From contig JBOGVS010000011.1 in NCBI GenBank assembly GCA_050692555.1, positions 8,241 through 72,240 on the forward strand: a stretch of 64,000 nucleotides of DNA, in the 5' to 3' direction. Made by a program: the position numbers and the translations under genes. Numbering within the stretch: position 1 is the stretch's first letter; the number at the start of each line of letters is the position of its first letter. This document shows positions 14,955 to 63,427 of the stretch, piece after piece. A model generated the notes under the pieces. That model was given only the letters and a program-made list of their open reading frames with translations, searched no databases and had not been told where the DNA came from. Source of the stretch: Actinomycetota bacterium. Lineage in GTDB: Bacteria > Actinomycetota > UBA4738 > CALAEC01.

Positions 14955-15440
14955 TCACCGGGCCTCCTCGGGCTCGAAGCACTCGATGTCGGTGATGTGT
15001 CCCGACCGCTCGTCCCGCCAGCGAACCCGGACCCGCATCCCCGTTCGCATCGTGGATTCGTCGCCGGCGTCGACCGCGTGGAGCATGGCCGTGTCGGCGC
15101 CGTCCAGTCGAACGAGGGCCCAGGCGAACGGCCGGTCCAGTGGGTGCTTGGGCCGCGGTTCGGTGACCCACGCCCACGTGGTGACCTCTCCCGACGTTCC
15201 CACCTCGACGACGTCTCCGGTGGCCTCGCCGGTCTCCGGGTCGTACTCCGCGGGTGGGACCAGGACCTTGCCCGACGACGTCCGCACTCCCTCGATCCGG
15301 CCGTCCCGGAGCCCGGCCAGAAACCGGCCGATGACCGGCCCCACGCTGCGTTTATAGGGGTATTCGAGAACGTGAGGGGCGGAAAGAACCTCGGGATTCC
15401 CGGCAGCCTCCGGCATACGGAAAAGTAGAACACGTTCCAA
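14955..15440 (-). CDS. DUF35-like OB-fold protein (zinc ribbon cysteines degenerate)
   Basis: 161 aa; OB-fold C-terminal pattern GEVTTWAWV...GMRVRVRW but no CxxC pairs. It is the first gene after a KstR box. Confidence 0.6.
   Translation of the reverse strand: MERVLLFRMPEAAGNPEVLSAPHVLEYPYKRSVGPVIGRFLAGLRDGRIEGVRTSSGKVLVPPAEYDPETGEATGDVVEVGTSGEVTTWAWVTEPRPKHPLDRPFAWALVRLDGADTAMLHAVDAGDESTMRTGMRVRVRWRDERSGHITDIECFEPEEAR
15426..15439. promoter_or_regulatory. KstR-type operator TAGAACACGTTCCA
   Basis: 14-bp palindrome matching TnnAACnnGTTnnA, in the divergent promoter between the DUF35/ltp operon and the cyclase-STAND gene. Confidence 0.65.
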
Positions 15441-15489
15441 TCTTCGCCGTCAAGCACGCCGTAGGTGGCGATTGGGCATACTCCTCTAG

Positions 15490-18400: not shown

Positions 18401-19701
18401 ACGCCACCGTCCGCATCTGGGACGCCCGGATCGGGAGCCTGCGGTTCAGCCTGTTCCACGACGGTCCGATCGGAGACGCGGACTGGAGCCCGGACTCCAC
18501 CCGCCTGGTGACCGGGGCGGGCGATGGAACCGCGACTGTGTGGCAGGTCACCGAAGCCGGGGGAAGGGAGCTGCTCTCCCTCTCGGCCCAGGACACCAGG
18601 GCCGGTATCTCGGGGGTGGCCTTCTCGCCCGAAGGTGATCGGGTGATGGCCGGGGACTCGGGGATCACGGCGGTGCAGGTCTGGGACGTGAGCCGGGCCG
18701 GCGACGCGGAGTGGGTGAACGTGCCCGGCGACCCCGCCTGGGTCTCCAGCGTGGCTTTCACCTCCTCGGGACGCCAACTGGTCGCCAGCAGTGAGGATGG
18801 GTCGGTATCGGTCTGGGACGCGGAGACAGGGCGAAGGGTCCGAACGTTCCAGGCTCACCAGTCTCCGTCCGACCCCGACTCCGTCTACGCCCTCGACGTG
18901 ACTGCGGACGACAGACTGATCGCCACCGCCGGAACCGACCAGACAGCCAGGGTGTCCGATGCGGCCACGGGGGGCGAGGTGTTCACCGTTGCATTCGAGG
19001 GATCGGTTGACGACGTCCACTGGAGTCCGGACGGCCGGCTGCTGGCCATGGCGGCGTTCGACGAGGGCGTGGCCAGGATCGTCGACCGATCCGGGGCGGA
19101 GATCGCCGTCCTGCGAGAGGACTCCGGCCTCGGGATCATCCACGTCCAGTTCAGTCCGGACGGTCGCCTGCTGGCCACGGCCAGCCTGTGGACGGGCCGG
19201 CCCGATCCGACGGCCCAGCGGGTGAAGATCTGGGACTGGCGACGGGGGAAGGTCGTTCGGGCCATTCCCGTCGTTGCCGAAGGCATGGCCTTCGATCCGA
19301 GCGGCCAACGGATCGCCATCGCCCACGGAGGCTTGGCCGGGATCTGGGATCTCCAGAGCGGGCGGAAGGGGGCGACCTTCGCCGGCCACGAGGGGGCACT
19401 CTGGGATGTCGCGTTCAGCCCCGATGGTTCCGTCATCGCCACCGCCGGCTTCGACAACACGGTGCGGCTCTGGGACTCGGAGTCCGGAGTCCAGCTCCTG
19501 GTACTCCGCGGACACCAGTTCATCGTGGGGCGGCTGGCCTTCAGCCCGGACGGTTCGAAGCTCGCTTCCGGGGCCGCCGATGGAACGGTGCGCGTGTGGG
19601 CCCTCGACCTCGACGACCTCATCGAGATCGCCAGGGGAGAGGTGACCCGGGGCCTTACCGACGCGGAGTGCCGACAGTATCTGCACGGGCCTTGTCCCTA
19701 G
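15490..19701 (+). CDS. multidomain signalling protein: class III nucleotide cyclase (CHD) – P-loop STAND/AAA ATPase – transmembrane helix – WD40 beta-propeller
   Basis: 1403 aa. CHD motifs FLIADIRGYT, RGDEALAVF, GALNLAARL. Walker A GPSGSGKSS and Walker B LVLLIDQFEE. TM helix LRAFVALLGAAVLIASGLTVFAF preceded by RRSVRR. More than 10 WD-like repeats (…WD, SFSPDG, VRVWD…). The alternative start M at 15529 (MQAKPG) is possible. Confidence 0.85.
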   Translation: MEGHRFTWRAQGVMQAKPGSEATSEASIRTFLIADIRGYTLFTAERGDEAAAELATRFAAVAREGVESRGGTVIELRGDEALAVFDSARQAIRTAIELQRRFVEETVADPRMPLPVGIGLDAGEAVAVEDGYRGGALNLAARLCSLAAPAEILASREVVHLARKVDGVTSVDRGSVRLKGLTDPVHVIRLRAEAEDAAEDTAFRRALGPSAAQLAPVVPGVMVPNPYKGLRPFEEGDAPDFFGREALTEQLVERLGETRFLAVVGPSGSGKSSVVRAGLIPALRRGALPGSGDWLIVEMFPGAHPLAELEAGLLRVAVNPPSSLIEQLERDDHGLLRAAKRVLPAGGSELVLLIDQFEEVFTLVEDDAARTHFLESLEAAVTEPHGRLRVVTTLRADFYDRPLLYRGFAELLRSRVEAVVPLSPEELERAISGPAKRVDMRLEHGLVAQMLAEVADEPGALPLLQYALTELFERREDSVLSLEAYRAIGGVSGALGRRAEELYGDLDAEGREAARQLFLRLVALGEGTEDTRRPVLRSELVSLEVDQQAMAAVIDSFGASRLLSFDRDSRTGAPTVEVAHEALLTAWGRLRRWIDEAREDLRTERRLALAAREWLDAGRDRSFLASGSRLEQFETLRQSGAISITPEERAFVEASLAERDRRRTEEEARQAREHALERRSVRRLRAFVALLGAAVLIASGLTVFAFTQQERAEREGTVAAARELAAAAVANLDADPERSILLALEAIERTRSRDGTVLPEAEEALHRAVVASRIVLSVPGVGGWLDWSPDGTRFVTEGPEETGIVDIRNAETGESMLSFTGHQMDVNGVTFSSDGSMLATTGDDGAAKIWDPQSGEELGSVQGPEGAVLGPSFSPDGSLAAAAWLDDGTVRVWDPATGRTVHELHPVPGPFRTSFSPDGRRLAIAALEPPVAVVVDVASGREVFTLEGHDFEVHDVDWSPDGRWIATSSVDATVRIWDARIGSLRFSLFHDGPIGDADWSPDSTRLVTGAGDGTATVWQVTEAGGRELLSLSAQDTRAGISGVAFSPEGDRVMAGDSGITAVQVWDVSRAGDAEWVNVPGDPAWVSSVAFTSSGRQLVASSEDGSVSVWDAETGRRVRTFQAHQSPSDPDSVYALDVTADDRLIATAGTDQTARVSDAATGGEVFTVAFEGSVDDVHWSPDGRLLAMAAFDEGVARIVDRSGAEIAVLREDSGLGIIHVQFSPDGRLLATASLWTGRPDPTAQRVKIWDWRRGKVVRAIPVVAEGMAFDPSGQRIAIAHGGLAGIWDLQSGRKGATFAGHEGALWDVAFSPDGSVIATAGFDNTVRLWDSESGVQLLVLRGHQFIVGRLAFSPDGSKLASGAADGTVRVWALDLDDLIEIARGEVTRGLTDAECRQYLHGPCP

Positions 19702-21285: not shown

Positions 21286-21299
21286 TAGAACACGTTCCT
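21286..21299. promoter_or_regulatory. KstR-type operator TAGAACACGTTCCT
   Basis: Palindrome in the fadD/adh divergent intergenic region. Confidence 0.65.
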
Positions 21300-21331
21300 G
21301 TTTCTGGACGCAACTCGGGGAGGCGGTCCAT

Positions 21332-21345
21332 CAGAACGTGTTCTA
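21332..21345. promoter_or_regulatory. KstR-type operator CAGAACGTGTTCTA
   Basis: Second palindrome 32 bp from the first, just upstream of the adh start. Confidence 0.65.
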
Positions 21346-23829: not shown

Positions 23830-23843
23830 TAGAACATGTTCTC
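23830..23843. promoter_or_regulatory. KstR-type operator TAGAACATGTTCTC
   Basis: Palindrome in the cyp/echA divergent region. Confidence 0.65.
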
Positions 23844-23880
23844 GTTTCTGGCGCAAGGCCCGCGGAATTGCCGCTCAAAC

Positions 23881-23894
23881 TAGAATGTGTTCTA
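23881..23894. promoter_or_regulatory. KstR-type operator TAGAATGTGTTCTA
   Basis: Second palindrome in the same intergenic region. Confidence 0.65.
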
Positions 23895-25100: not shown

Positions 25101-26236
25101 TTAGGAGGCCGGCTCCCGGTCCCGCTCGACGCGACGGAGCCGCTCGAGCGTCTCCTCACACTCGGCCGCCATCGACCGGATGATCTCCGCGGCGGGACGG
25201 ACCTCGTTCATGCGTCCCACGATCTGGCCCACCGGCATGCCGATCAACGCCTCGTTCTCCGAGAGGAAGATCCGGTGCTGGGCCTCGGCGGTGAGCATGA
25301 ACTGGAGCGGCATTTGCAGGGTCCCGGGAGACCGGGGATCGTCCCAGGCGTCTGTCCACGCGGTGCGGAGCAGCCGGGCGGGCTTCCCGGTCCAGGCGCG
25401 CGTCCGCACGGTGTCCCGGGCGGTAGCGTCGAGCAGCTTCTGAACCACCACCGGTGACAGCTCGTCGTTCTCCTCGGCCGTGAGCCAGATCGACCCGGTC
25501 CACACGCCCTCCGCGCCGAGGGCCAGGGCGGCCGCCATCTGCCTCCCGCTTCCGATGCCTCCGGCCGCCAGGACCGGCGCGGGGTGGACGGCGTCCACGA
25601 CGTCGGGGGTCAGCACCATGCTCGCCACAACCCCGGTGTGGCCAGCGGCCTCGGTCCCCTGGGCCACGATGATGTCCACTCCGGTCTCCACCTGCTTCCT
25701 GGCCTGGTCGACGTGGCCCACCAACGCCGCGACGGGCAGTCCCCGGCGGTGGGCCTCGTCGATCACGTCTTTGGGCGGGGGGCCGAGGGCGCTGGACAGC
25801 AGCTTGATCGGATGGGAGAACGCCACCTCGAGCTGCGGCCGGGCCGTGGCTTCGGTCCAACCCAGGAGCTCACGGGGCGGGGGAGCGTCCGCCGGGAGCG
25901 GGGGGACGTCGTGTCGCTTCAGGACGTCCTCGACGTACTGGCGGTGCCCCTCGGGGATCATCCCCTCCAGGTCACCGAACAGCTTGGCCGGGTCGAGGGT
26001 CCCGGCTCCCTCGTACGAAACGGGAGTGACCACGTTCACGCCGTAGGGCTTGCCGTCCACGTTCTGGTCGATCCAGGACAGCTCCTCCTCCAGCTCGTCG
26101 GGGGAGAACCGCAGCGCGCCCAGGACCCCGAACCCTCCATCCCTGCTCACCGCGGCGACCACCTTGCCCGAATGGCTGAAGGCGAAGATCGGATGCTCGA
26201 TGTCAAAGAGCTCGGTGACCCGCGTCTGCATTCGCT
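25101..26236 (-). CDS. nitronate monooxygenase family (NMO/2-nitropropane dioxygenase-like; IpdC-type enoyl reductase candidate)
   Basis: Start MQTRVTELFDIEHPIFAFSH...; FMN-binding TIM barrel motifs GIGSGRQMAAALALGAEGVWTGS. The track ORF is over-extended at the N-terminus. Confidence 0.8.
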
Positions 26237-26248
26237 CCTCCGTAGGCT

Positions 26249-27844
26249 TCAGGCACCGGCCATGGCCCCGGTGGCCACGGCCTTGGCCCAGGGGTAGTCG
26301 GGCTTGCCGCTGGGCTGGCGAACGACCCGTTCGACCAGGTGAACTTCCCGGGGGACCTTGTATCCGGCGACGTGCTCCCGGCAGTGGCGATCCAGGGCTT
26401 CCAGGGTGACCTCGGTGCCGGACCGGGGTTGCACCACGGCGGACACCCGCTCCCCCCATCGCTGGTCCGGAACCCCCACCACCACGGCGTCATACACGTC
26501 GGGGTGGGACTTCAGGGCCTTCTCGACCTCCTCCGGGAACACCTTCTCCCCCCCGGTATTGATGCACCCGGTTCCCCGGCCGAACACCACGATGGTCCCG
26601 TCCTCCTCCACGGTGGCCAGGTCGCCCTGCATCGCCCACCGGACCCCCTCCACCTCCACGAAGGTCCGGCGGGTTCGCTCCTCGTCCTTGTAGTAGCCGA
26701 GCGGCAGGCGGTCGCGGCGGGCCAGCTTCCCCACCACGCCGGAGCCCGGGGCTACGGGCCGGAGGTCGTCGTCCAGCACGGTGGTCCGGTCGTTCATCAT
26801 GAACCGCAACCCGCCGCCTTCCGGTGGGCCGCCGGGGGCCTCCATCCCCTGGAACCCGGTCTCCGTGGACCCGAAGTTCTCGGTGACGATGGTGTTGGGG
26901 AGCAGCCCCCGGAGCTGCTCCTTGACCGAGGGCGACAGCACCGCCCCGGTCGATCCCAGGTACACCAGCGACGAGAGGTCGTGGGCCTCCGGGTCGGCGG
27001 CCAGCGCCTCGGCCAGGGGCCGGGCCATGGCGTCGCCCACGATTGTTATCGTGTTGACCCGCTCCCGCTCGACCGTCTCCCACACACCGTTCGCGTCGAA
27101 CCTCGGGACCAGCACCACCTTGTCGCCCCAGAACAGCCCGATGAGCACTCCCAGTTGGGCCGCCCCGTGGATCAGCGGAGGCACGGGGAACTGCACCACC
27201 GTGGGCCGGGCCACGGCGTTCTCGGCGAGCTGCTCGGGACGGTCGATGGGGTCCCCGGTGGGGTTGCCGCCTCCCAGCGCGGTGAAGAACAGGTCCTCCT
27301 GCCGCCACATGACCCCCTTGGGCATCCCTGTGGTCCCGCCGGTGTAGATCACGAACAGGTCGTCGCCGGACCGAGCCGGGAACCCCCGCTCGGGGGACGC
27401 CGCGGCCAGGGCGTCCTCGAATGGAACGGACCCGGGGCTGTCGTCATCGGATCCATCCTCGACCATCACGAGGTGGCGGAGATCGGGGGTCCGGGAACCC
27501 TGCAAGCGAGAGGCGAGCGACCGCCCGTGGACCACCGCCACGAGGTCGGCATTGTCGAACAGGTAGCGAAGCTCGTCCTCCACGTACCGGTAGTTGACGT
27601 TGATCGAGGTAGCCCGGATCTTGGCGCACGCCAGCATGGCCTCCACGTACTCGGTGCCGTTGTGCATATACAGGCCCACGTGGTCTCCGGGGCCGATCCC
27701 GGCGTCGAGGAGATGGTGGGCCAGCCGGTTGGCCCGCTCTTCCAGGGCCGCGTACGTCAGCCGCCGGTCACCGCAGACCAGCGCTTCCCGGTCGGGAACC
27801 GCGTCCGCCACGGACTCGAACAGGTCGCCCAGGTTGTATTCCAC
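26249..27844 (-). CDS. fadD: acyl-CoA synthetase (AMP-binding; FadD3/FadD17-like)
   Basis: 531 aa; MEYNLGDLFE..., YTGGTTGMPKGV, GDLATVEEDGTIVVFGRGTGCINTGGEKVFPEEVE. Confidence 0.9.
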   Translation of the reverse strand: MEYNLGDLFESVADAVPDREALVCGDRRLTYAALEERANRLAHHLLDAGIGPGDHVGLYMHNGTEYVEAMLACAKIRATSINVNYRYVEDELRYLFDNADLVAVVHGRSLASRLQGSRTPDLRHLVMVEDGSDDDSPGSVPFEDALAAASPERGFPARSGDDLFVIYTGGTTGMPKGVMWRQEDLFFTALGGGNPTGDPIDRPEQLAENAVARPTVVQFPVPPLIHGAAQLGVLIGLFWGDKVVLVPRFDANGVWETVERERVNTITIVGDAMARPLAEALAADPEAHDLSSLVYLGSTGAVLSPSVKEQLRGLLPNTIVTENFGSTETGFQGMEAPGGPPEGGGLRFMMNDRTTVLDDDLRPVAPGSGVVGKLARRDRLPLGYYKDEERTRRTFVEVEGVRWAMQGDLATVEEDGTIVVFGRGTGCINTGGEKVFPEEVEKALKSHPDVYDAVVVGVPDQRWGERVSAVVQPRSGTEVTLEALDRHCREHVAGYKVPREVHLVERVVRQPSGKPDYPWAKAVATGAMAGA

Positions 27845-27856
27845 CGGAATAAGAAG

Positions 27857-27870
27857 TAGAACACGTTCTC
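27857..27870. promoter_or_regulatory. KstR-type operator TAGAACACGTTCTC
   Basis: Palindrome 13 bp upstream of the fadD start. Confidence 0.65.
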
Positions 27871-27898: not shown

Positions 27899-28441
27899 CT
27901 AGTTGGCTACCGTGCCCAGTGGGTCGCAGACCTTGCAGGGCTCCAGGCCCGATTCCGCGGAGACCTGACGGAGGTCCTCCCGTCCGGCCACCACCATGCA
28001 GTCGCGACGGTGGAACAAGGTCCCCTTCTCGGTGACCACGAACTCGCCGTTGGTGCTGCCGGGTGCGCCGGCCTCCGCGGCCGCTCCGAACACTGCACCG
28101 GAGGCCAGCAGCCCGTGGATCTTGTCCAGGACGTCGGCGGTGCGCTTGGCCTGGATCCGGTTCTCCAGGATCAGCCGGCTGAGCCAGAAGGCGAAATAGA
28201 GGAACGCTCCGAGGAATACCAGGCCCAGCCCCAGGAGGCCGCCGGAGATCATGTAGGGCACCTGCTCGAACAGGAACGGCGTATGGGCAGCCCCGTACCA
28301 CCCCAGCAGGATCAGACCGAATCCAAGAACGATGGCCACGGCTCCGCCGACCATCAGGGCTCGGGGGAGGTCGATCCTGGCTGCGCGGGCCTTGATCTTG
28401 GCGACCCGTTCGGCGAACGTCTGAGGGGTCTGGGAGCTCAT
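27899..28441 (-). CDS. small membrane protein with Cys-containing C-terminal domain (hypothetical). Last gene of the ABC transporter operon
   Basis: 180 aa, 2 TM helices; C-terminal C-x20-C-x2-C. 4-nt overlap with the upstream gene. Confidence 0.5.
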   Translation of the reverse strand: MSSQTPQTFAERVAKIKARAARIDLPRALMVGGAVAIVLGFGLILLGWYGAAHTPFLFEQVPYMISGGLLGLGLVFLGAFLYFAFWLSRLILENRIQAKRTADVLDKIHGLLASGAVFGAAAEAGAPGSTNGEFVVTEKGTLFHRRDCMVVAGREDLRQVSAESGLEPCKVCDPLGTVAN

Positions 28442-29742
28442 TGATCGCCCAGCGGGCAGGTGGCTCCAGTTGCTTGAGCGGTCACGGCCCTTCGGGCCAG
28501 CCCGGTCAGGAAGCGGCCTCCGAGGGCCGCGGCGCCAACAGCCACTCCACCGAGGGCGGCGGGCAACGCCGCCGCCTCGGGGATCGGAAGCGGTGCCGCA
28601 ACGGGCTGGGTGGTGACGATCTCCTGGGCCGGCACCGTGCTCCCGGCGGTCGGCGGCGTGCCGGGGATGGTGGTGGTGGTCGGGCCCGAGCCAGATCCCG
28701 AGGTTCCGCCGGCGGCCGGCGTCCCCGAGGTCCCGCCACCCTGGGCCTTCCCCTTACCGGTCGTGGCGGGCTCGGGAGCAGGCCCCCCGCCGCCCCCGCC
28801 GCTGACCGACACCGGAGGAAGTGCTGCCGAGCTCACGCTCACTCCAGCGAACTGGTAGGTGGTGGTGAAGTTGGCGGGCAAACCGGACGTGCCCGGGGAG
28901 AAGGTGACGACCAGACCTCCGGCCGTCCGAGCGGAGTCCGCTCCGTTGATGGTGTCCACCGGCTGGGCCACCCGGATCGTGATCCCCATCTGATCGAGGG
29001 CCGACTGGGCCGGGTTGGGCGCAAACGGGATCGTCGTGGTGGCGACGTGGACCCCCGACTGATCGATGGTCACCGGCGTGCCGGCGATGGTGGCGCCGGT
29101 CACCACGGTCTGCCCCTCCACGGTCCCCGTGGTCCCGTCGGAGATGGCTTTCGCGTCGGTGACCACCGAGCCGATGTGGATCACCCCATTCAGCAGGCTG
29201 ATGTCGTTCGCGGCGGCGGTGGCCGCCGAGACGACCCGGGCGGACTCCACGGCCGTGGACGCCGTGCTCGTCAGGGACCCGATCACACCGACCGGCCCTC
29301 CGGGCACGCTCTGGGTAGTGGTGCTGGCCTCGGACTTGGAATCGTCGCTGTGGGTCTTCATCGTCAGGGTGCCGCCGTCGTTCGACACATGATCCGCCGG
29401 TCCCTGCGGGAAGAAGGACTCAGACCGCACGGGGTAGTTGGGGAACCCGAAGAACGACCCTGCGTTGGCCGCCGTGGATCCCGGCCACAGCACGCTGGAG
29501 AGGGAGTGGCCGGTCGGTCCGGTCTCGTGGCGGGCCTGGCTGTAGGCCTCGTGCATCTCCCCGGTGGGGTCGGCGGGGATCGGCGAGCCGGGCTGGTTGA
29601 ACGTCACGGTGACTCCTGAAGACGCGGCCTTGAGCGTGAAGCCCTGGAAGGTCTGGGTCTGAGCGGACGCCGACGCTACCCCGAAGAGCCAGAGTGCCCC
29701 TCCGGCGCAGATGATCGCGAGCACACGCCGTTTTGACCTCAT
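28438..29742 (-). CDS. secreted/cell-surface Thr/Gly/Ser-rich protein with signal peptide and C-terminal hydrophobic anchor (hypothetical)
   Basis: MRSKRRVLAIICAGGALWLFGVASASAQT signal peptide; T/S/G/A-rich body; C-terminal AALPAALGGVAVGAAALGG. ATGA overlaps with the ABC ATPase gene. Confidence 0.55.
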   Translation of the reverse strand: MRSKRRVLAIICAGGALWLFGVASASAQTQTFQGFTLKAASSGVTVTFNQPGSPIPADPTGEMHEAYSQARHETGPTGHSLSSVLWPGSTAANAGSFFGFPNYPVRSESFFPQGPADHVSNDGGTLTMKTHSDDSKSEASTTTQSVPGGPVGVIGSLTSTASTAVESARVVSAATAAANDISLLNGVIHIGSVVTDAKAISDGTTGTVEGQTVVTGATIAGTPVTIDQSGVHVATTTIPFAPNPAQSALDQMGITIRVAQPVDTINGADSARTAGGLVVTFSPGTSGLPANFTTTYQFAGVSVSSAALPPVSVSGGGGGGPAPEPATTGKGKAQGGGTSGTPAAGGTSGSGSGPTTTTIPGTPPTAGSTVPAQEIVTTQPVAAPLPIPEAAALPAALGGVAVGAAALGGRFLTGLARRAVTAQATGATCPLGDQ

Positions 29743-30446
29743 GCCGCACCACCAAGGTACGCCCCGTGGAGCTGCTCCGCCACATCCCCCGGCTCTCCGA
29801 GGATCCTCACCCGGCCGTGGGCCATGACCGCCGCGTAGTCCGCCACCGAAAGTGCCATCTGTGCATATTGTTCGATGATCAGCACCGAAACACCTTCCCC
29901 GGCGATCCCCGCGATGATCTCGTAGAGATCGGCCACGATCAGGGGCCCAAGGCCCATCGAGATCTCGTCGAGCATCAGCAGGCTGGGCTTGGTGACCAGG
30001 GCCCGGGCGATGGCCAGCATCTGCTGCTCGCCCCCCGACATCGTCCCGGCCAGCTGCCTGCGGCGCTCCTTCAGCCGGGGGAACCGGGCGAACGCTCCGG
30101 CCGTCACCTCCGACATGGGGATCCCGCCGAACGTCACCATCTCAAGGTTCTCGGTCACCGTGAGGTTGGGGAAGATCCCCCGGCCCTCGGGGATCGTGCA
30201 CACCCCGGCGCGGGCCAGGGCGTCGGGGTCGGCTCCGTTGACGTGCTTGCCCGCCACGTGGACACAGCCCGACATGGGCCGGATCTGACCGCTGGCCACC
30301 TTGACGGTGGTGGTCTTCCCCGCTCCGTTCGGACCCAACAGCGCCACCACGCTGGCCGGTGGCACCACCAGGTTCACGCCGTGGAGGACCTGGATCTTGC
30401 CGTAGCCGGCCCGGACGTCTCGCAGCTCGAGCACGGGGGTGGTCAT
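29739..30446 (-). CDS. livF: ABC transporter ATP-binding protein (LivF-like, HAAT family)
   Basis: Walker A GPNGAGKTT, signature LSGGEQQ, Walker B LLMLDE. Confidence 0.9.
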   Translation of the reverse strand: MTTPVLELRDVRAGYGKIQVLHGVNLVVPPASVVALLGPNGAGKTTTVKVASGQIRPMSGCVHVAGKHVNGADPDALARAGVCTIPEGRGIFPNLTVTENLEMVTFGGIPMSEVTAGAFARFPRLKERRRQLAGTMSGGEQQMLAIARALVTKPSLLMLDEISMGLGPLIVADLYEIIAGIAGEGVSVLIIEQYAQMALSVADYAAVMAHGRVRILGEPGDVAEQLHGAYLGGAA

Positions 30447-31187
30447 CTACGCGGTCTCCTCCACCTGTGCCGTCCCCAGGTACGCCTCGCGCACGGCCTC
30501 GTTGGCCTGGACCTCCCCGGGCGTCCCGGCGGCGATGATCTTGCCAAACTCCAGCACGAACACCCCGGTGCACACCTGCATGACCAGCTCCATGTCGTGT
30601 CCCACTAGGAGGATGCCGAGGCCTTCGGTGGCCAGCTCCCGCATGAGGTCGGCGACCTCCCGCCCCTCCTCGTCCGACAGCCCGGATGACACCTCGTCCA
30701 GGAGGAGGAGCCTGGGCTTGGCCGCCAGGGCTCGCCCGAACTCCACCAGACGCATGAGCCCGGTGGGAAGCGAGTCCGCCCGCTCGTCGGCAACCGACTG
30801 GAGACCGATGGTGTTCACGGCGTGCTCGGCCACGGCTCTCGGCTCCGAGCCGTCCCACACCCACCGCTGCCTGGCCTCCGCCGCCACCAGCTGGTTCTCC
30901 CGGACGGTGAGCGACCCGAAGATCTCCAGCTTCTGGAACGTCCGGGCGATCCCCAGCCTGGCCCGGTGATGCGGCTTCAGGCGAGTGACGTCCTGGCCGT
31001 CGAACATCACCTTGCCTTGAGTGGGGGGCTGAAGCCCGCAGATCACGTTGAACAGCGTCGTCTTGCCGGCGCCGTTCGGCCCGATCAGGCCGGTCACCGC
31101 GCCCTCGTCGGCGTCGAGGCTCACCCGGTCCAGGGCGGCCACCCCTCCGAACCGGACGCTCACGTCATCGACCTCGAGCAGTGGCAA
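30447..31187 (-). CDS. livG: ABC transporter ATP-binding protein (LivG-like, HAAT family)
   Basis: GPNGAGKTT, LSGLSDEEG.., LLLLDE. Confidence 0.9.
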   Translation of the reverse strand: MPLLEVDDVSVRFGGVAALDRVSLDADEGAVTGLIGPNGAGKTTLFNVICGLQPPTQGKVMFDGQDVTRLKPHHRARLGIARTFQKLEIFGSLTVRENQLVAAEARQRWVWDGSEPRAVAEHAVNTIGLQSVADERADSLPTGLMRLVEFGRALAAKPRLLLLDEVSSGLSDEEGREVADLMRELATEGLGILLVGHDMELVMQVCTGVFVLEFGKIIAAGTPGEVQANEAVREAYLGTAQVEETA

Positions 31188-31193
31188 TCCGCG

Positions 31194-33134
31194 TCACCCC
31201 CCCACCGGGGCTCCCGCCTCCACCGCCGCGGTGGCGGCTTGTGGACTCGGGCGTAGAGGCCGCCGCCAGAACGCCAGCGGGCGAAGCGACTCGAACAGGA
31301 GGAACGCGAATCCATTGGGGTTCCGGCCCAGGCTGACGGCACCCAGTCCGATCAGCAGGGGTACCAGCCCGCCCAGGGCCGGGACCTCTGCCGCCAGGAC
31401 CGGGAGCAGGGCCAGGCCCAGCCCGCCGATCAGGGCCCCGGTCACCGAGGTGATCCCCCCCAGGACCGCCGCCAGGAGGAGCGGGAGGCTCTCGAACATA
31501 ATGAAGTTCTGGCCCCCTGCCACCCCGGCGACCCCCCCGTACAGGGCCCCGGCGAGGCCGGCCATGCCGGCCGAGATCGTGAACACGGCCAGCTTGGTCC
31601 TGGTGAGGTCCAGGCCCAGCATGGTGGACGCGGCTGGGCTGTCGCGCATGGCCGCCAGGCGCCGGCCGAACCGGCCGCGCCGAAGGGCCAGCACGAACAT
31701 ACCCAGCAGGCCGAACGCCGTGGCCAGCACGATGAAGTAGGCCCGCTCACCATCGAAGGACCAGCCCAAGAGGTCGAGGCGCCCGACGTCCCTGCTTCCG
31801 AAGGGGCCGAAGAAGAAGTCCTGGCGGAACACCACGAAGTCCATGAACAGGGCGAAGGCCATGGTGGCCAGGGCCAGATACAGGCCCTGGAGGCGGAGCG
31901 CGGGGAGGGCCACGATGGCCCCCACCGGGGCCGCCAGCGCCACGGCCAGCAGGAGGCCCATCGGCGACCCGTCGCCCCCGAACCTCCCCATGGCGAAGGC
32001 TCCCACCCCGGCGAAGGTCAGCTGGCATAGGGACACCTGCCCGCCGTACCCGGTCAGCAGGACCAGGGACAGCATGATCAGGGCCAGCGCGAGCCCCTTG
32101 CCCACCGTCACCCGATTCGAGTCCGACAGGACCCCGGAGAGGAACACCGCGGCACCTACGAACAGGACCGCGACGACCAGCGACTGCAGCCGCCCAGGAA
32201 CCCGCGGGGCCCGGGCCCCGGCCAGCCGGCCCGCCGACAGCCGCTCCTCCGGCATCGCGATCATCACCGCGAACAGTAGGAGTGCCGGCAGTGCCGGGCG
32301 GAGGTCGTTGATGACCCCCGCGAAGCTCTCCAGCGAGAACACCCGGATGATCGTGCTCTGGTACCCCAGCAGATAGGACTGCCCCAGGCCCAGGATCATG
32401 GCCCCCAGGAACGTGAGCGGCAGGCTCTTCAGCCTCCCCACCATGGCCGCCGCGTACGCGCTGATCACCAGGAGGGTCAGCGTGATGATGTCCAGGGACA
32501 GGAGCGGGGCCAACAGGATCCCCGCCAGGGCCGCCAGCGACGCCCCGATGGCCCACGAGAGCATGCCGAGCCGGGCGGTTCTCGCCCCGTTCAGCGCCGC
32601 AAGGTCCCGGGCGTCGACCACCGCCCGCATGGCCGTCCCGGTACGGGTGTTGAACAGGAGCACCCGGAGCCCCACGGCAACCGCCCCGGCGATGACCAGC
32701 GTGATGACCTGGTGCCAGCTCACGAAGATGCCGGCCAGCCGGAACCCGGCAAACCCCAGGAACTGGGGTACCTCACGGGTGGCGGGAGGCCAGATGGACT
32801 GGGCCAGGCCCACCAGAAGCACCAGGAGACCGATCGTCACCACCAGGGAGGTCCCCGCCGACGACCCATGGAGGTTCCGCATCAGCGTCCGCTCGATGAG
32901 AGCGCCCATCAGCGGGGCCAGCACCACAACCACCAGGAACAGCGCCACCGGTGTGGGGAGCCCCAGGTTCACCAGGAGCTCCCAGTAAGTGAAGGCCATG
33001 AACATCCCGATGGCCCCGTGGGCGAAGTTGAAGATCCCGGACGCCGTGTAGGTGACCACCAGCCCACCGGCGGCGATGGCGTAGACGGCTCCCGTCACCA
33101 CCCCCAGCACTGTGAAGGCCAGGAACTCAGCCAC
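31194..33134 (-). CDS. fused ABC permease (LivH + LivM-like; branched-chain amino acid transporter-type permease domains)
   Basis: 646 aa, highly hydrophobic; two BPD_transp_2-like halves. Confidence 0.85.
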   Translation of the reverse strand: MAEFLAFTVLGVVTGAVYAIAAGGLVVTYTASGIFNFAHGAIGMFMAFTYWELLVNLGLPTPVALFLVVVVLAPLMGALIERTLMRNLHGSSAGTSLVVTIGLLVLLVGLAQSIWPPATREVPQFLGFAGFRLAGIFVSWHQVITLVIAGAVAVGLRVLLFNTRTGTAMRAVVDARDLAALNGARTARLGMLSWAIGASLAALAGILLAPLLSLDIITLTLLVISAYAAAMVGRLKSLPLTFLGAMILGLGQSYLLGYQSTIIRVFSLESFAGVINDLRPALPALLLFAVMIAMPEERLSAGRLAGARAPRVPGRLQSLVVAVLFVGAAVFLSGVLSDSNRVTVGKGLALALIMLSLVLLTGYGGQVSLCQLTFAGVGAFAMGRFGGDGSPMGLLLAVALAAPVGAIVALPALRLQGLYLALATMAFALFMDFVVFRQDFFFGPFGSRDVGRLDLLGWSFDGERAYFIVLATAFGLLGMFVLALRRGRFGRRLAAMRDSPAASTMLGLDLTRTKLAVFTISAGMAGLAGALYGGVAGVAGGQNFIMFESLPLLLAAVLGGITSVTGALIGGLGLALLPVLAAEVPALGGLVPLLIGLGAVSLGRNPNGFAFLLFESLRPLAFWRRPLRPSPQAATAAVEAGAPVGG

Positions 33135-33166
33135 TCCGGCTCCCCTCGCGGCGACCCCGTGCCGCG

Positions 33167-34669
33167 CTAGACCTTGATCACGGGCCCCTTGTCACACATC
33201 CAGCCCGAGGCCGGGTCCCGTCGGGTGAACTTGCCGCCCCCGATGGTGCCGTACAGCAGGCAGGGCGAAGAGATCTTGGCTCCGATGTCGTGCTCGGCGT
33301 GCATGCCGTTCCCACCCCAGGCGTGGAGCTTCCCGAGCTCGCCGAGCAGGGCCTGCCGGGTGGGGGCGGGCCCAAGGCCTTCCATCAGTTGCACGAACAA
33401 CCGCCCGGCCGACCAGGCGTACAGCCCGAAGTAGTCGGGCTTGGCCCCGGGAACCGTTCGGCTGAGCCATTGCGTGTACAGCTGCATCTCCTGGTTCCCG
33501 CCGGCTTCCTCGAACATCGCGGTGTTGATGAAGAACAGCGAGCCATCGGCCGCCGGACCGGCGTCCGTCAGGAAGTCGGGGTCGTACACCACCGAGTCGA
33601 AGTCCTTGACCGTCGGGGACCACTGCTGCTGTCGCATGGCGTCGAGCAGCCGGGCGATGCTCTGGAAGTTCCCGATCATCGTGACGTACTGGACCCCGAG
33701 CCGTTGCATGTCGAACACGTACGGCGCGTAGTTCGGCTCGACGGGCTGGACCTCTTGGCGGTAAACGAAGTTGAACCCCGAGGCCCTGAGGCCCTTCTCC
33801 CGGGATGCCGCTGCGGCCCGGGGCACATCGGCGGCCAGCCAGATGATGGCCGCCTTGCTGATGACCTGAGGGAATTTCTCCTTGATGTAGTTGCCTTCCG
33901 CGGAGATGAAGTAGTCGGGACGGTTCGGATAGGCGGGGTACACCGTTGAGGCCTGGACCTTCTGCAAGGACGTGGTGATCGCGGGGATCTCGGGGATCCC
34001 ACACTGCTGGCCGCTGGAGGCTCCTCCATGGTCGAACGCCGACATCGATCCGACGATGGCGAACGACTTCTGGCAGGCCTCGAGGGTGGCCGCCCGGTTG
34101 CCGGCGACGTCCTGCTTGGTGTCCAGATAGATCCCCTGGAGGTTCCGGCCGCACACCCCGCCGGTGCTGTTCTCGTAGGCCACCAGGGCCTTGATGGCGT
34201 CCTGCGACGACTGGAACAGCCCGGGCTGGATGCCGCTGATGTCGGCGACGTTGGAGATCGTGATGGAGTTCGGGGTGACCCCGGTGTCCGAGGAACCCTG
34301 GGGGCTGCACTGACCGCCCTTGGAGCCGCCGCCTCCTCCGCCCTTCCCTCCCTTGCCGCCCTTCCCGCCGCCTCCGCCGGACCCCGTGGTTCCCGTCGTC
34401 CCCGTGGTGGTCCCGCCCCCGCCGCCACCGGTCGTTACGGTCTGGTCCTCCGTCCCGGCCGTTCCCGGCTGTCCGGTTCCCCCACCCTGGACCGTGGTGC
34501 CCAGCGTGCCGGTTCCACCTTCGGCGCCCGATGTCTGGCCGGACAGGACCAGGTCCCACTGCTCTTCGGTCAGCCGGGCGCCGCACGCGGTCGTCAGCAA
34601 CAGGGAGACGGCCAGGAACGCGACGGCTCGGCCCTTCATCGTTCTGTGTTTCGACGACCGGCGGGTCAT
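33167..34669 (-). CDS. ABC substrate-binding lipoprotein (LivK/Leu-Ile-Val-binding protein type I PBP fold) with Gly/Thr-rich linker
   Basis: Lipobox LLLTTAC-G; G/T-rich low-complexity linker; periplasmic binding fold motifs (SFAIVGSMSAFDHGG...). Confidence 0.85.
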   Translation of the reverse strand: MTRRSSKHRTMKGRAVAFLAVSLLLTTACGARLTEEQWDLVLSGQTSGAEGGTGTLGTTVQGGGTGQPGTAGTEDQTVTTGGGGGGTTTGTTGTTGSGGGGGKGGKGGKGGGGGGSKGGQCSPQGSSDTGVTPNSITISNVADISGIQPGLFQSSQDAIKALVAYENSTGGVCGRNLQGIYLDTKQDVAGNRAATLEACQKSFAIVGSMSAFDHGGASSGQQCGIPEIPAITTSLQKVQASTVYPAYPNRPDYFISAEGNYIKEKFPQVISKAAIIWLAADVPRAAAASREKGLRASGFNFVYRQEVQPVEPNYAPYVFDMQRLGVQYVTMIGNFQSIARLLDAMRQQQWSPTVKDFDSVVYDPDFLTDAGPAADGSLFFINTAMFEEAGGNQEMQLYTQWLSRTVPGAKPDYFGLYAWSAGRLFVQLMEGLGPAPTRQALLGELGKLHAWGGNGMHAEHDIGAKISSPCLLYGTIGGGKFTRRDPASGWMCDKGPVIKV

Positions 34670-34684
34670 ATCCTGCCCACCCCT

Positions 34685-34879
34685 TCAGCCCTCGGCGGTG
34701 CGAATGGCCGTTTTCGGACATACCCGGACGGCGTGCTCCACCTTCTCGCGCAGGTCCTCCCTGGGAAACTCGATGAGCACGTGAGAGATCTCGTCGTCAC
34801 CCACCTCGAAGACCTCCGGGGCCACCTCCATGCACCGGGCGTTCCCCTCGCACAGGGCCTCGTCGACGATCACCTTCAT
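34685..34879 (-). CDS. single-cluster ferredoxin (3Fe-4S/4Fe-4S; FdxD-like)
   Basis: 64 aa: MKVIVDEALCEGNARCMEVAPEVFEV...VRVCPKTAI. ATGA overlap with the upstream ACAD. Confidence 0.8.
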   Translation of the reverse strand: MKVIVDEALCEGNARCMEVAPEVFEVGDDEISHVLIEFPREDLREKVEHAVRVCPKTAIRTAEG

Positions 34880-36066
34880 GTCGGGCCGCTCCCGGCCGTC
34901 ACCTCGACCCGCTCGGCTCGGCTCGCCGACCACGGCCGTCCGGCATCGACGTCGGGCTCCCGGGGAAGGCCGAGGGCCCGCTCGGCGATGATGTTCCGCA
35001 GGACCTCGGTGGTCCCGCCCCCCACCGTGAGCGCCGGGCTGAACAGGAACCCCTGCGTCCACCACCCCGTTGCTGAGCCCAGGGGTCCGGCCTCCTGGAG
35101 CATCCCGGCCGTCCCGGCCAGGTCCCTGGCCAGGCGGAACACGTCCTGGCCGTGGGGATCGTTGAGAGCCTTGAGGATCGCGGCGCTCGACTCCGCGGGG
35201 GTCCCCTGGATCTTCCGGGCCACGTTCAGCAGGCCGTAGATCCGGCAGATCTCGCCGTCGATGTACAGCTGGGCCACCCGCTGGCGCATGGCGGGGTCCG
35301 GGGCGCCGCCCTGCTCGCGGACCACGTCCGCCAGGTCCCGGGCGGTGGGTCCCCAGCCCCACTGGGCGCCGTCCCGAGACAACGTGACCCGCTCGTTGGC
35401 CAGGGTCTCCTTGGCCAGTACCCACCCGCGGTTCTCCTCGCCGATCAGGTTCTCCGCGGGGAGCCGGACGTCGGAGAAGAACACGTCGTTGAAGCTGTGC
35501 CAGCCGGTCATGTCCACGATCGGCCGGACCTCGACCCCCGGGAGGTCCATCGGGATGATGAAGTAGGACAGGCCCTCGTGTTTGGGGGCCTCGGGGTTCG
35601 TGCGGGCCAGGAGGATGCCGAACCTGGCCAGGTGGCCCAGCGACGTCCAGGTCTTCTGGCCGGTCACCACGTACTCATCACCTTCGCGCCTGGCCCGGGT
35701 GGCCACCGCGGCGAGGTCGGAGCCCGCCTCCGGCTCGGAGAACAGCTGGCACCAGATCTCCTCGCCGGAGAGCATCGGCGGCAGGTATCGGTCCTTCTGC
35801 TCCTCGGTCCCGTGCATCAGCAGGATGGGGCCGCAGTGTCCGGTGCCGACCGGGTTGATGGGCCGGCGCACGTCGGCGCGGCGGAGCTCGTCCTCGATCA
35901 CCAGCTGGAGCATGGGGTCAGCGTCGAGACCCCAGGGCCGGGGCCAGTGGGGAACGATATAGCCGGCCTCGGCGAGGTCCTGGCCGGTGGGGTCGGGGTG
36001 CTCCTCGAGCCACTTCCGCACTTCCTGGCGGCGGGGGTCGTCGTCGGCAGGCAGCTCGACGAACAT
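34876..36066 (-). CDS. acyl-CoA dehydrogenase
   Basis: 396 aa; LFSEPEAGSDLAAVATRARREGDEYVVTGQKTW...GGGTTEVLRNIIAERALG. Confidence 0.9.
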   Translation of the reverse strand: MFVELPADDDPRRQEVRKWLEEHPDPTGQDLAEAGYIVPHWPRPWGLDADPMLQLVIEDELRRADVRRPINPVGTGHCGPILLMHGTEEQKDRYLPPMLSGEEIWCQLFSEPEAGSDLAAVATRARREGDEYVVTGQKTWTSLGHLARFGILLARTNPEAPKHEGLSYFIIPMDLPGVEVRPIVDMTGWHSFNDVFFSDVRLPAENLIGEENRGWVLAKETLANERVTLSRDGAQWGWGPTARDLADVVREQGGAPDPAMRQRVAQLYIDGEICRIYGLLNVARKIQGTPAESSAAILKALNDPHGQDVFRLARDLAGTAGMLQEAGPLGSATGWWTQGFLFSPALTVGGGTTEVLRNIIAERALGLPREPDVDAGRPWSASRAERVEVTAGSGPT

Positions 36067-36098: not shown

Positions 36099-36112
36099 TG
36101 CAACAGGTTCTA
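36099..36112. promoter_or_regulatory. degenerate KstR-type operator TGCAACAGGTTCTA
   Basis: Matches TnnAACnnGTTnnA. Lies between divergent fadE (–) and kstR-like (+) starts, consistent with autoregulation. Confidence 0.5.
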
Positions 36113-36133: not shown

Positions 36134-36757
36134 ATGGCGGAAGCGAACAGGCTCACCCCCAAACAGGAAGCCCGGCGCCGGCGGGTCATCGAGGCCGCCG
36201 CTCAGCTGGCCTCCGAGGGCGGGTACGACGCCGTGCAGATGCGCGACGTGGCCACTCGAGCCGACGTGGCCCTGGGCACCGTGTACCGGTACTTCTCCTC
36301 CAAGGACCAGCTCCTGGTGGAGTGCCTGTGGCAGGTGGCCCACCAGCTCCAACAGGACCTGGCCGGGCGGCCACCCAAGGGAGAGTCCACCGCCGACCGG
36401 GTGGTGGAGGTCATCCGCCGAGCCACCCGGGCCCTGGAAGCCGATCCCAAGGTCGCCTCGGCGCTGGTGACCGCGCTCGCGTCGCTGTCGTCGGAGGACC
36501 CCGCCGGCCTGGAATCCGCACAGGCGGTCTACGCCATCGTCAGCGACATGTTCACCGAGGCCATGGACGGCGGCGACCACCCCGACCGGGAAGCGGTGAT
36601 CCGCACGCTCGGCCACGTGTGGCTGGCCGCCCTGATCACCTGGGTCCGCGGCTGGTCGACCAAGAACGAGATGTGGAGGGACCTGGAGGCCGCGGTTCGG
36701 CTGCTGCTCCCGGCGGGGGAGAAGGCCACCCGCTCCCTGGCCAAGGCCCGGGCGTGA
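36134..36757 (+). CDS. kstR: TetR-family transcriptional regulator, KstR-like
   Basis: HTH region AAAQLASEGGYDAVQMRDVATRADVALGTVYRYFSSKDQLLVE, as remembered for KstR-type repressors. The symbol is inferred from this and from the surrounding KstR-type boxes. Confidence 0.7.
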   Translation: MAEANRLTPKQEARRRRVIEAAAQLASEGGYDAVQMRDVATRADVALGTVYRYFSSKDQLLVECLWQVAHQLQQDLAGRPPKGESTADRVVEVIRRATRALEADPKVASALVTALASLSSEDPAGLESAQAVYAIVSDMFTEAMDGGDHPDREAVIRTLGHVWLAALITWVRGWSTKNEMWRDLEAAVRLLLPAGEKATRSLAKARA

Positions 36758-49573: not shown

Positions 49574-50804
49574 GTGGAGCGGCACACCCTGTGGGATCGG
49601 CTTCGCCGCGTCAATCCCGTGGTCTGGGACGCCCTGTTGGCCGTTGCCGTCTTCCTGGCCAGCGTCCTCGCCGGATCCTCCTACTTCTCGGGCGAAGGCC
49701 GAGTGGAGATTCGCTTCTACGCAGGTGCAGAGCAGGACCCCGCGTTCCTCCTGTTATCCAGAGAAGGAGTGACGGCACATCTCGGCGAGGGCTGGCCGGC
49801 GCTGGCCCTTATCGCCGCGGCGTGTGCTCCCCTCGTGTGGCGTCGCCGAGCGCCGATCGGGACGCTGGTGCTCACCTCGATCGCGGCCGGTGCCTATCAG
49901 TTCTTTGGGTACCGGGACGGATTGGTGGGGTTCCCGCTCGTCGTCGCGGCATACACGGCGGCGGCGTACCGCGATCGGGTGCCGGTGCTCGTGGCGGCGC
50001 TTCCCGTCGCCCTGGCCGCGGCCCTGACCATCTTGCTGATCGGATTCGACGATCGAGGCCGGCTTGAGTCGGCCGCCATCCTGTTGATCCTGGTCGGGCT
50101 GCCGATGCTCTTCGGCCAGATCGCGTACAACCGACGGCGGCGCATCCAGCTAGACCTCGGGCGGGCGACCCGCGACGCCGTCGGCAGCGAGCGCGCCCGG
50201 ATCGCCCGGGAGCTGCACGACGTGGTGGCTCACGCCATGGGGGTGATGGTGGTTCAGGCCGGGGCTGGCCGCGTCACCATCGACCGCGATCCCGCAGAAG
50301 CGGCGACCGCGTTCAAGCGGATCGAGGAAACGGGCCGCACCGGCCTCGCCGAGATGCGCCGGCTGGTCGGCATCCTGCAGAAGGAAGAGGAGGCCGCAGC
50401 CCTGGTCCCTCAGCCCGGGCTCGACCAGCTAGACGAGCTCCTGGAACGGATGCGGCAAACAGGCCTACCCGTCGAGGCCGACATCGAGCCGGTGCCGGGA
50501 TCACTGCCGCCGGGTGTCGACCTCACCGCCTATCGGGTAATCCAGGAGGCGCTGACGAACGCCCTCAAGCACGGGGGAGGCGCGCGGGCTCGCCTCTTAC
50601 TCCGCTTCGATGCCGAAGCACTCGACGTGCAGGTCTCCGACGACGGACGAGGGCCGCCGCCGGACGGCACGCGGATCCAGGGTCACGGCCTCATCGGGAT
50701 GCGCGAGCGAGTGGCGTTGTTCGGGGGGACGTTGGAAACCGGAGAACGTCCGGGGCGGGGGCTTCGTGGTGAAGGCCCGGATCCCGCTGGCGGAACCGAC
50801 GTGA
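49574..50804 (+). CDS. NarL/DesK-type sensor histidine kinase (HisKA_3 + HATPase_c). Canonical C-terminus lies in the +1 frame after a G-run near 50752–50760
   Basis: TM N-terminus; H-box ARELHDVVAHAMGVMVVQAG; HATPase GHGLIGMRERVALFGGTLE. The expected end ...GGGFVVKARIPLAEPT* is in the +1 frame (track ORF 50610..50804). The main frame reads through into the RR gene. Confidence 0.75.
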
Positions 50805-58543: not shown

Positions 58544-58549
58544 CCGCGA

Positions 58550-61046: not shown

Positions 61047-61049
61047 CGA

Positions 61050-62467: not shown

Positions 62468-62557
62468 TCAACGCACCTCCTTGATCACTGCTGCGGGCGC
62501 TCCTCGAGCACCGGGCTCTGCCAGCGCTGCGCTAGACCCTTGTGCGTCACCACCCCC

Positions 62558-63316: not shown

Positions 63317-63427
63317 CAGTCCAGTGTCTGATTGTGTCCGAGCCCGTGAGAGTCTGCCCGTTTGGGGATGCGAAGTCAAGTGACCGGGCGCATTCAGAAG
63401 TCCACCGAAGCGGTTAGGTAAAACAAA

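Follow-up and report, generated by a model that had tools for sequence, protein, structure and literature searches.

We lean, on balance, toward reading eight genes of an uncultured soil bacterium of the Actinomycetota as a KstR-repressed importer of the HAAT (LivK-type) family of ATP-binding cassette (ABC) transporters, in which two membrane proteins, here termed g7 and g8, would act as dedicated subunits and whose substrate would be a sterol- or lipid-derived compound. The genes lie at positions 27899 to 36066 of a 64-kb stretch of contig JBOGVS010000011.1, which was analyzed as a whole and is referred to as the window. The homologs collected point to a separate subfamily of such importers in actinobacteria, distinguished by two extra membrane proteins, with the importer of the window as a member. 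In the order of transcription, the eight genes are as follows.

34876-36066, minus strand: fadE, acyl-CoA dehydrogenase (ACAD), first gene of the unit (Pfam domains Acyl-CoA_dh_N, _M and _1)
34685-34879, minus strand: fdx, single-cluster ferredoxin of 64 aa (Fer4_15 and Fer4_13)
33167-34669, minus strand: SBP, lipoprotein substrate-binding protein of 500 aa (Peripla_BP_6)
31194-33134, minus strand: LivHM, fused LivH-LivM permease of 646 aa (two BPD_transp_2 stretches)
30447-31187, minus strand: LivG-type ATPase with a TTG start (ABC_tran and BCA_ABC_TP_C)
29739-30446, minus strand: LivF-type ATPase (ABC_tran)
28438-29742, minus strand: g7, type-I membrane protein of 434 aa, without a Pfam family
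27899-28441, minus strand: g8, hairpin protein of 180 aa with two transmembrane (TM) helices, without a Pfam or NCBIfam match

Gene content of the unit and linkage of g7 and g8 to the transporter

A scan with an alignment of g8, covering one genome per species, found g8 relatives in 302 species genomes. From these 302 species, 80 loci were kept for synteny counts, which were made by tblastn with the window proteins. In these counts, the gene immediately upstream of g8 is g7 in all 72 of the 72 loci with enough flank, a fused LivHM gene is found nearby on the same strand in 61 of 62, and an SBP gene on the same strand accompanies them in 57 of 58. The carriers include Actinomycetota metagenome-assembled genomes (MAGs), Acidimicrobiia, Microthrixaceae, Frankiales, Mycobacteriales MAGs and Streptosporangiales, together with two cultured strains, Actinospongicola halichondriae Hal317 and Nocardioides limicola DJM-14.

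Three arrangements were distinguished. Arrangement A is window-like, with kstR divergent from fadE-SBP-LivHM-G-F-g7-g8, followed by FadD-NMO; its fadE orthologs occupy the same position as that of the window and are 69 to 72% identical to it. In arrangement B, found in Acidimicrobiia, an ACAD gene is divergent from SBP-LivHM-g7-g8, and LivG and LivF are encoded nearby. Arrangement C, from Frankiales and Mycobacteriales MAGs, reads FadD-ACAD-ACAD-SDR-LivHM-G-F-g7-g8-SBP (SDR, short-chain dehydrogenase/reductase), and on its 3′ side kstR is divergent from a FadE34-like double ACAD. The reverse test started from three distant g7 homologs (25 to 41% identical): a g8-sized unannotated gene adjoins each of them, with HAAT genes around, and the orders SBP-g7-g8-LivHM-G-F and LivG-F-g7-g8-X-LivHM are permuted relative to the window. 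This linkage between g7/g8 and the transporter, which survives rearrangement of the gene order, suggests that the proteins work together and that g7 and g8 are dedicated subunits. Overall, synteny strongly supports g7 and g8 as obligate companions and dedicated parts of this transporter subfamily. An earlier note on this DNA had proposed the two tail genes as transporter accessories, to be checked by their synteny in relatives; the g7-g8-HAAT linkage is kept there, permuted orders included, and gives that proposal strong support.

Locus L002 (6434-10669) is the only one without a same-strand permease gene before g7-g8. In its stead stand two genes without annotation, for products of 522 and 124 aa; ACAD-SBP-LivHM lies upstream on the opposite strand, and MauE- and NHL-repeat genes follow g7-g8. 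The ferredoxin was considered as a core part of the module and rejected, as tblastn gave a match in none of loci L001 to L084; it appears only in L085, a near-identical relative, and in L088. In L088 (773-9089), a distant module whose g7 is 26% identical, a small ferredoxin gene and an SDR gene come before SBP-LivHM-G-F-g7-g8; the ferredoxin association recurs sporadically and is missing in most loci.

All eight open reading frames (ORFs) of the window are present on the minus strand, and their Pfam domains agree with the labels that the earlier note had given them. Third-position GC lies between 0.86 and 0.94 in every one of the eight ORFs, supporting that they are real genes, in a window with a G+C content of approximately 70%. 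In locus L085, a relative whose g8 is 97% identical, independent Joint Genome Institute (JGI) gene calls give the same order, ferredoxin included, with products of 396, 64, 503 (the SBP, of 500 aa in the window), 646, 246, 235, 434 and 180 aa. Read directly from the sequence, the junctions are either ATGA overlaps (fadE/fdx, LivF/g7 and g7/g8) or gaps of 15 nt (fdx/SBP), 32 nt (SBP/LivHM), 6 nt (LivHM/LivG) and 0 nt (LivG/LivF), exactly as had been described with an upper limit of 32 nt, and purine-rich stretches precede the SBP and LivHM starts. The stop/start overlaps of g7 with LivF and with g8 suggest translational coupling. No terminator-like hairpin was found at any of the junctions by a scan that, like one for sigma-70 promoters, is of little information in high-GC DNA; three such hairpins were detected, all within the SBP gene, a number equal to the shuffle expectation. 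From this layout, we propose that the eight genes constitute one KstR-boxed transcription unit.

The transporter core consists of an SBP matching Peripla_BP_6 (PF13458, E value of 7.7e-29), a permease with two PF02653 stretches, and LivG and LivF ATPases. With NCBIfam models, the N-terminal half of LivHM is UrtB/LivH-like and the C-terminal half UrtC/LivM-like, whereas the best models are UrtD and LivG for LivG and UrtE and LivF for LivF, below the equivalog cut-offs. The Pfam and NCBIfam assignments support the identification of a HAAT/LivK-type ABC importer. The SBP has a lipobox (LLTTAC) and an 85-residue Gly/Thr tether (residues 40 to 125, 45% Gly), and all 37 syntenic SBPs share the lipobox, the sequence CGARL(T/S)xEQR right after the lipidated Cys, and a long Gly/Thr tether. 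The tether of the SBP (approximately 85 residues, within the region 34295-34582, which encodes SBP residues 30 to 125) and the stalk of g7 are about equally long. In three loci (L066:4347-6995, L068:5958-8585 and L081:5962-8616), the permease ORF encodes 875 to 884 aa and a separate LivG gene was not found, suggesting a triple LivH-LivM-LivG fusion.

The AlphaFold model of g7 predicts a signal peptide, an all-beta ectodomain (residues 34 to 308) with a predicted local distance difference test score (pLDDT) of approximately 90, a disordered 83-residue stalk of Gly, Pro, Thr and Ala, and a TM helix at the C terminus, after which comes a short cytoplasmic tail. This tail, ending CPLGDQ, holds the sole Cys of mature g7; all 74 of 74 relatives have this Cys, most often within a CP pair. 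An exhaustive phmmer search gave 733 cluster representatives of g7 homologs, mostly of 420 to 550 aa and with the domain at the N terminus. This search replaced word-indexed ones, which were swamped by low-complexity words and returned 24 matches with the full protein and 19 with the ectodomain; further g7 ORFs were extracted from the g8-anchored loci. Against the NCBIfam model NF040603 (choice-of-anchor P), g7 passes marginally, with 29.4 bits versus a cut-off of 27 (E value of 6.8e-7), and the alignment pairs g7 residues 133 to 227 (95 of 434) with model positions 29 to 123. The earlier note had seen no recognizable family in either tail gene, which holds for g8 but, given this marginal match, not for g7. 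A Foldseek comparison with the PDB gave no solved structural homolog of g7 (TM-score of 0.27 or less), and a resemblance to porins was rejected as homology, as it consists only of long antiparallel strands.

All 843 homologs of g8 are labeled hypothetical, and all come from uncultured Actinomycetota. In an alignment of 36 sequences, the 2-TM hairpin has an invariant short outer loop (W48, G50, A51, T54, Q60, P62, Y63 and S66-G68), and H144, C148, C169 and C172 are invariant at the C terminus, in a motif that includes P168. The AlphaFold model (AF2, pLDDT of 83) predicts the hairpin, a long cytoplasmic helix continuing to residue 124, and three short strands between residues 134 and 160. The C-terminal His-Cys3 mini-domain may be a zinc-ribbon or other metal-binding domain. 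Searched by Foldseek against the PDB, the g8 model gave nothing below an E value of 0.1, only generic helical hairpins. The g8 protein ends CKVCDPLG (27899-27990) and the g7 tail CPLGDQ (28438-28500); given this likeness, the two tails may touch each other or contribute to a common metal site.

KstR operators and the catabolic surroundings

The regulatory elements and the genes adjoining the unit are listed here.

36134-36757, plus strand: gene of a KstR-type repressor of the TetR family (207 aa), divergent from fadE (TetR_N and TetR_C_20)
36099-36112, strand not assigned: KstR-type operator TGCAACAGGTTCTA, within the 67 nt that separate kstR from fadE
27857-27870, strand not assigned: second KstR-like box TAGAACACGTTCTC, between the end of g8 and the start of the FadD19-like ligase gene
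26249-27844, minus strand: FadD19-like acyl-CoA synthetase, in the next transcription unit (PRK07798, 747 bits versus a cut-off of 543)
25101-26231, minus strand: NMO/FMN-dependent oxidoreductase, co-directional with the FadD gene (best NCBIfam model FabK, enoyl-ACP reductase II)

The closest solved relatives of the divergent TetR protein are the KstR proteins of Mycobacterium smegmatis and Mycobacterium tuberculosis (5aqc, 5cw8 and 3mnl), which it matches over the full length with E values of approximately 1e-27, generic TetR proteins reaching 1e-9 or weaker. By these matches, it is a KstR ortholog. Lying upstream of both genes, the box TGCAACAGGTTCTA is 33 nt away from the fadE ATG and 22 nt away from the divergent TetR gene, and it fits TnnAACnnGTTnnA, the operator motif of mycobacterial KstR. 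There are three strict matches to TnnAACnnGTTnnA in the window versus 0.09 expected, and boxes with two or fewer mismatches to TAGAACnnGTTCTA occur eight times versus 0.18 expected, all of them intergenic in the catabolic cluster. An orthologous box is located at the same place, between kstR and fadE, in 10 window-like loci. The operators, together with the KstR ortholog, predict KstR control of the unit.

The earlier note had taken the box at 36099 as the sole upstream regulatory element. This box is indeed present upstream of the unit, beside the KstR ortholog, but the further KstR-like box at 27857 to 27870 had been overlooked. A perfect TAGAACGTGTTCTA box stands at the position equivalent to 27857 in L003, L004, L007, L008 and L009. 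This box, with the ligase gene behind it, suggests that the regulated block continues as a second unit, formed by the ligase and the NMO gene.

Strict KstR boxes were found in 35 of 58 loci, with 63 boxes overall in 1.26 Mb, or 3.2 per 64 kb versus 0.09 expected. Their sites differ with the arrangement: the kstR/fadE gap in A, a short gap between divergent genes immediately ahead of SBP in B, and the position before the first ACAD gene of the operon in C. In N. limicola, the box lies approximately 200 nt before the SBP gene. These sites in three arrangements suggest that KstR boxes repeatedly target the transporter genes and not fadE alone.

In type A loci, the FadD19-like ligase gene comes directly after g8 and is followed by NMO, EchA19-like and cytochrome P450 genes. 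The NMO orthologs carry the Pfam domain NMO (PF03060), and that of L085 has 376 aa. The window also encodes a FadA5-type steroid 3-ketoacyl-CoA thiolase (PRK07850, 668 bits versus a cut-off of 515), an EchA19-like hydratase (PRK07799), a P450, an F420 oxidoreductase of the Rv3520c family, many ACADs, and ChsH1/ChsH2-like and Ltp2-like proteins. Judged by these genes, the set around the unit is a sterol side-chain degradation cluster, which agrees with the earlier proposal that the transporter is embedded in a steroid catabolic regulon. No nitrogen-metabolism genes were found near the unit in the domain scans of the window.

Other features were observed in the window. Paired KstR-like boxes occupy the divergent gap between the FadD4-like ligase and zinc-dependent alcohol dehydrogenase (Zn-ADH) genes (21286-21345) and that between the P450 and EchA19-like genes (23830-23894); being approximately 46 to 51 nt apart, the paired operators may serve the two divergent promoters. 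In the region 15426-19701, a strict KstR box (at 15426) precedes the gene of a 1,403-aa protein, whose N-terminal stretch resembles the adenylate-cyclase region of LipJ and whose close homolog in L085 (1,389 aa) has nSTAND1, AAA_16 and WD40 beta-propeller domains; a STAND-type signaling NTPase is unusual in a KstR regulon. The 627-aa protein encoded at 49574 to 51457 combines HisKA_3, HATPase_c, receiver and LuxR/GerE domains, a two-component system in one polypeptide. The lipid cluster ends at an ordinary block of a sugar phosphotransferase system (PTS), at 56532 to 63379, with EI, HPr, a PfkB kinase, a Zn-ADH, EIIC and a DeoR regulator.

Substrate, proposed mechanism and alternative explanations

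A search of solved structures with the single SBP sequence matched only 3hut. With a profile of the SBP family, the best match was 4n03 (E value of 4e-29), followed by 3hut and then by LivK and LivJ (approximately 1e-16 to 1e-14). The 4n03 structure is reportedly that of the palmitate-bound SBP of a fatty-acid ABC transporter from Thermomonospora curvata. The ligand-binding residues were mapped in a MAFFT alignment of the 37 syntenic SBPs with LivK (1usg), which is approximate at about 23% identity. In LivJ and LivK, Ser79, Thr102, Tyr202 and Glu226 bind the alpha-amino and alpha-carboxylate groups of the amino acid. The equivalent of Ser79 is kept in 32 of the 37 SBPs and that of Thr102 in 17. 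By this approximate mapping, Tyr202 is kept in none of the 37, being D, E, A or N instead, and Glu226 likewise in none, with V, Q, T, I, S or A in its place. The missing Tyr202 and Glu226 equivalents argue, at this low identity, against a Leu/Ile/Val site.

The CoA ligase behind the transporter, which has its own KstR box, fits an acid substrate that is activated on entry rather than a neutral sterol. The earlier note had assigned amino acids, urea or amides to HAAT importers as a rule, which is too narrow, as most COG0683 binding proteins of Rhodopseudomonas palustris bind aromatic, fatty or dicarboxylic acids (PMC3223731). From the genomic context, the substrate would be hydrophobic, probably carboxylated, and steroid- or lipid-derived.

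Regarding the mechanism, we envisage that a steroid-derived CoA thioester would release KstR from its operators, so that the unit would be expressed, as the operator and the KstR ortholog suggest. The SBP, possibly with the g7 ectodomain in a capture or hand-over role in the wall zone, would capture a poorly soluble, probably carboxylated compound, which LivHM with LivG and LivF would bring into the cell, in keeping with their family homology. The obligate co-occurrence of g7 and g8 suggests that g8 and the TM helix and tail of g7 may assemble with the permease and the ATPases or regulate them from the membrane and the cytoplasmic side. The imported acid would then be activated by the FadD19-like ligase, under its separate KstR box, and enter degradation by ACAD, hydratase and thiolase, as the gene context suggests. 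A more far-reaching version makes g7 a stalked, wall-spanning, beta-rich capture protein and g8 a Zn-ribbon membrane adaptor, which would let a LivK-type transporter import insoluble sterols or steroid acids and would constitute a second, Mce-independent KstR route, widespread in uncultured soil Actinomycetota and Acidimicrobiia; we regard this version as possible but doubtful.

Several observations weigh against a KstR-repressed importer with g7 and g8 as dedicated subunits for a sterol- or lipid-derived compound. Genes for ring degradation (KshA, KstD and Hsa) were not seen in the window. The closest solved SBP, 4n03, is only approximately 25% identical, too distant for transfer of the ligand, and the LivK residue mapping has the low identity given above; that a steroid, a steroid acid or another lipid acid is the substrate is something we infer. 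The g7 and g8 models have no informative fold match, so that their proposed roles are read from synteny. In addition, a strict KstR box is missing from 23 of 58 loci, the flanks of which are less steroid-specific (alcohol dehydrogenase [ADH], AMP-binding and SCP-x thiolase genes), and one distant module lies beside ribosomal genes. Finally, mce genes accompany the module in six loci, so that the two systems coexist there and the importer is no simple stand-in for Mce.

The six loci just mentioned, all of Acidimicrobiaceae (L041, L027, L039, L040, L050 and L084), have mce genes approximately 8 kb downstream of g8. These genes carry MlaD and Mce4_CUP1 domains, and L041 (18461-20504) is the locus of the cultured A. 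halichondriae. Directly after g8, the Acidimicrobiaceae loci encode a racemase-like CoA-transferase of family III, together with an alpha/beta hydrolase. In the window, no MlaD or MlaE (Mce/YrbE) domain was found among the approximately 50 ORFs scanned with Pfam, and tblastn of the window with two L041 Mce proteins gave noise only, with a best E value of 0.07. In its strong form, the proposal of the earlier note was a replacement of Mce4 that imports cholesterol itself in lineages without Mce4. Besides the missing Mce/YrbE homologs, the KstR boxes and the long tethers of the SBP and g7, which would suit an insoluble substrate, speak in its favor. However, that negative covers 64 kb, from which nothing is concluded for the genome, the KstR-boxed CoA ligase behind the unit fits an acid better than a neutral sterol, and the mce genes near the module, also in a cultured strain, rule out Mce replacement as a general rule. 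The system is thus non-Mce within the window, and the import of cholesterol in place of Mce4 appears decidedly unlikely. A different alternative is a general importer of lipid acids (medium- or long-chain fatty, dicarboxylic or branched acids), for which the steroid genes would be mere neighbors and KstR control would reflect a broad lipid-catabolic scope. It draws on the best match of the SBP family profile, 4n03, with its reported link to fatty acids, on the fatty and dicarboxylic acids bound by the R. palustris COG0683 proteins encoded beside pimFABCDE (PMC3223731), on the best NCBIfam model of fadE, which is the PimC large subunit, matched below its cut-off, and on the 23 loci that combine the lack of a KstR box with generic AMP-binding, thiolase and ADH flanks. 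Nevertheless, steroid-specific side-chain genes (FadA5- and ChsH2-type, EchA19- and FadD19-like, and P450) surround the unit in type A loci as well as in the window, kstR adjoins the unit, in type C loci the unit lies beside kstR and the FadE34-like double ACAD, and 4n03 is only approximately 25% identical; we consider a general lipid-acid importer fairly unlikely.

An ordinary importer of amino acids, urea or amides, placed in a lipid cluster by chance, would explain why the best NCBIfam models of the permease and the ATPases are Urt and Liv equivalogs, all matched below their cut-offs, and why the equivalents of Ser79 and, in part, Thr102 are retained. The loss of Tyr202 and Glu226 in all 37 SBPs, the linkage to a KstR box and an ACAD gene kept across three arrangements, and the lack of nitrogen-metabolism genes nearby argue against it, and most of the R. 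palustris COG0683 proteins tested did not bind Leu, Ile or Val (PMC3223731), which makes this explanation highly improbable. It also seems very unlikely that g7 and g8 are a separate, co-transcribed surface or signaling pair, such as an envelope sensor or an adhesin with its membrane partner. The match of g7 to a surface-anchored family of no assigned role, the metal-binding-like cytoplasmic domain of g8, and locus L002, where g7-g8 is not immediately downstream of the permease gene, would fit such a pair, but the adjacency to HAAT genes is seen in 61 of 62 loci and survives permuted gene orders, and the stop/start overlaps of g7 with LivF and g8 indicate translational coupling.

Significance and comparison with known systems

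To our knowledge, bacterial uptake of steroids and lipids is understood in detail only for Mce4 of mycolate actinobacteria; for Proteobacteria, there are hints that TonB receptors take part. The uptake of steroid acids has been called "largely unknown" in a review (PMC8399759). That LivK-type proteins can bind fatty and aromatic acids has been documented before (PMC3223731); what appears new here is a HAAT importer with two previously undescribed conserved membrane proteins under KstR-type operators. The locus is a widely distributed candidate for steroid or lipid uptake, given the g8 relatives in 302 species genomes. If the proposed function is true, a textbook ABC family would gain a new subunit composition, hundreds of annotations as "branched-chain amino acid transporter" or "hypothetical protein" would be corrected, and the module would provide a marker for the turnover of sterols and lipids by uncultured soil Actinomycetota. 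As cultured carriers, A. halichondriae Hal317 and N. limicola DJM-14 make the module experimentally accessible.

The system resembles the LIV-I/HAAT importers (LivJ/K-LivHMGF and UrtABCDE; TCDB 3.A.1.4) in its Peripla_BP_6 SBP, its BPD_transp_2 permease, and its LivG (BCA_ABC_TP_C) and LivF ATPases. It differs from them in the fusion of the permease halves, in the lipoprotein SBP on an 85-residue tether, in the missing equivalents of LivK Tyr202 and Glu226, in the KstR-type operators, and in the extra membrane proteins g7 and g8. We know of no described HAAT system that includes equivalents of g7 or g8, and our literature search for a HAAT/LivK transporter in a steroid or KstR context found nothing. 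The COG0683 transporter RPA3723-3725 of R. palustris is likewise LivK-type and adjoins a beta-oxidation operon, pimFABCDE; its binding proteins take fatty and dicarboxylic acids, and a matching CoA ligase is encoded nearby (PMC3223731), just as the transporter here has genes for a PimC-like ACAD and a CoA ligase at its sides. Unlike the present system, it is proteobacterial, has multiple periplasmic SBPs, is without KstR control, and has no reported accessories of the g7/g8 type.

The Mce4 steroid importer (Mohn et al., 2008), with its accessory proteins Mas/Mam and LucA (PMC5487216), shares with the present system the ATP-driven transport, the control by KstR, and the location in actinobacterial sterol clusters, and it, too, depends on additional small membrane proteins besides its permease and ATPase core. 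Its architecture is unrelated, whereas the importer described here is SBP-dependent, with no MlaD or MlaE domains in the window. CamABCD of Rhodococcus jostii RHA1 (ro04888-ro04885) is an ABC importer dedicated to steroid-derived acids, which takes cholate metabolites back up (PMC8399759 and PMC6678751); it belongs to a cholate cluster and not to a KstR side-chain cluster, and it is likened to our system by description only. As for the choice-of-anchor P family (NF040603), its members are, like g7, secreted proteins with a C-terminal anchor. Compared with this 185-position model, g7 is a protein of 434 aa whose tail carries an invariant Cys and which is encoded alongside g8 and a HAAT transporter.

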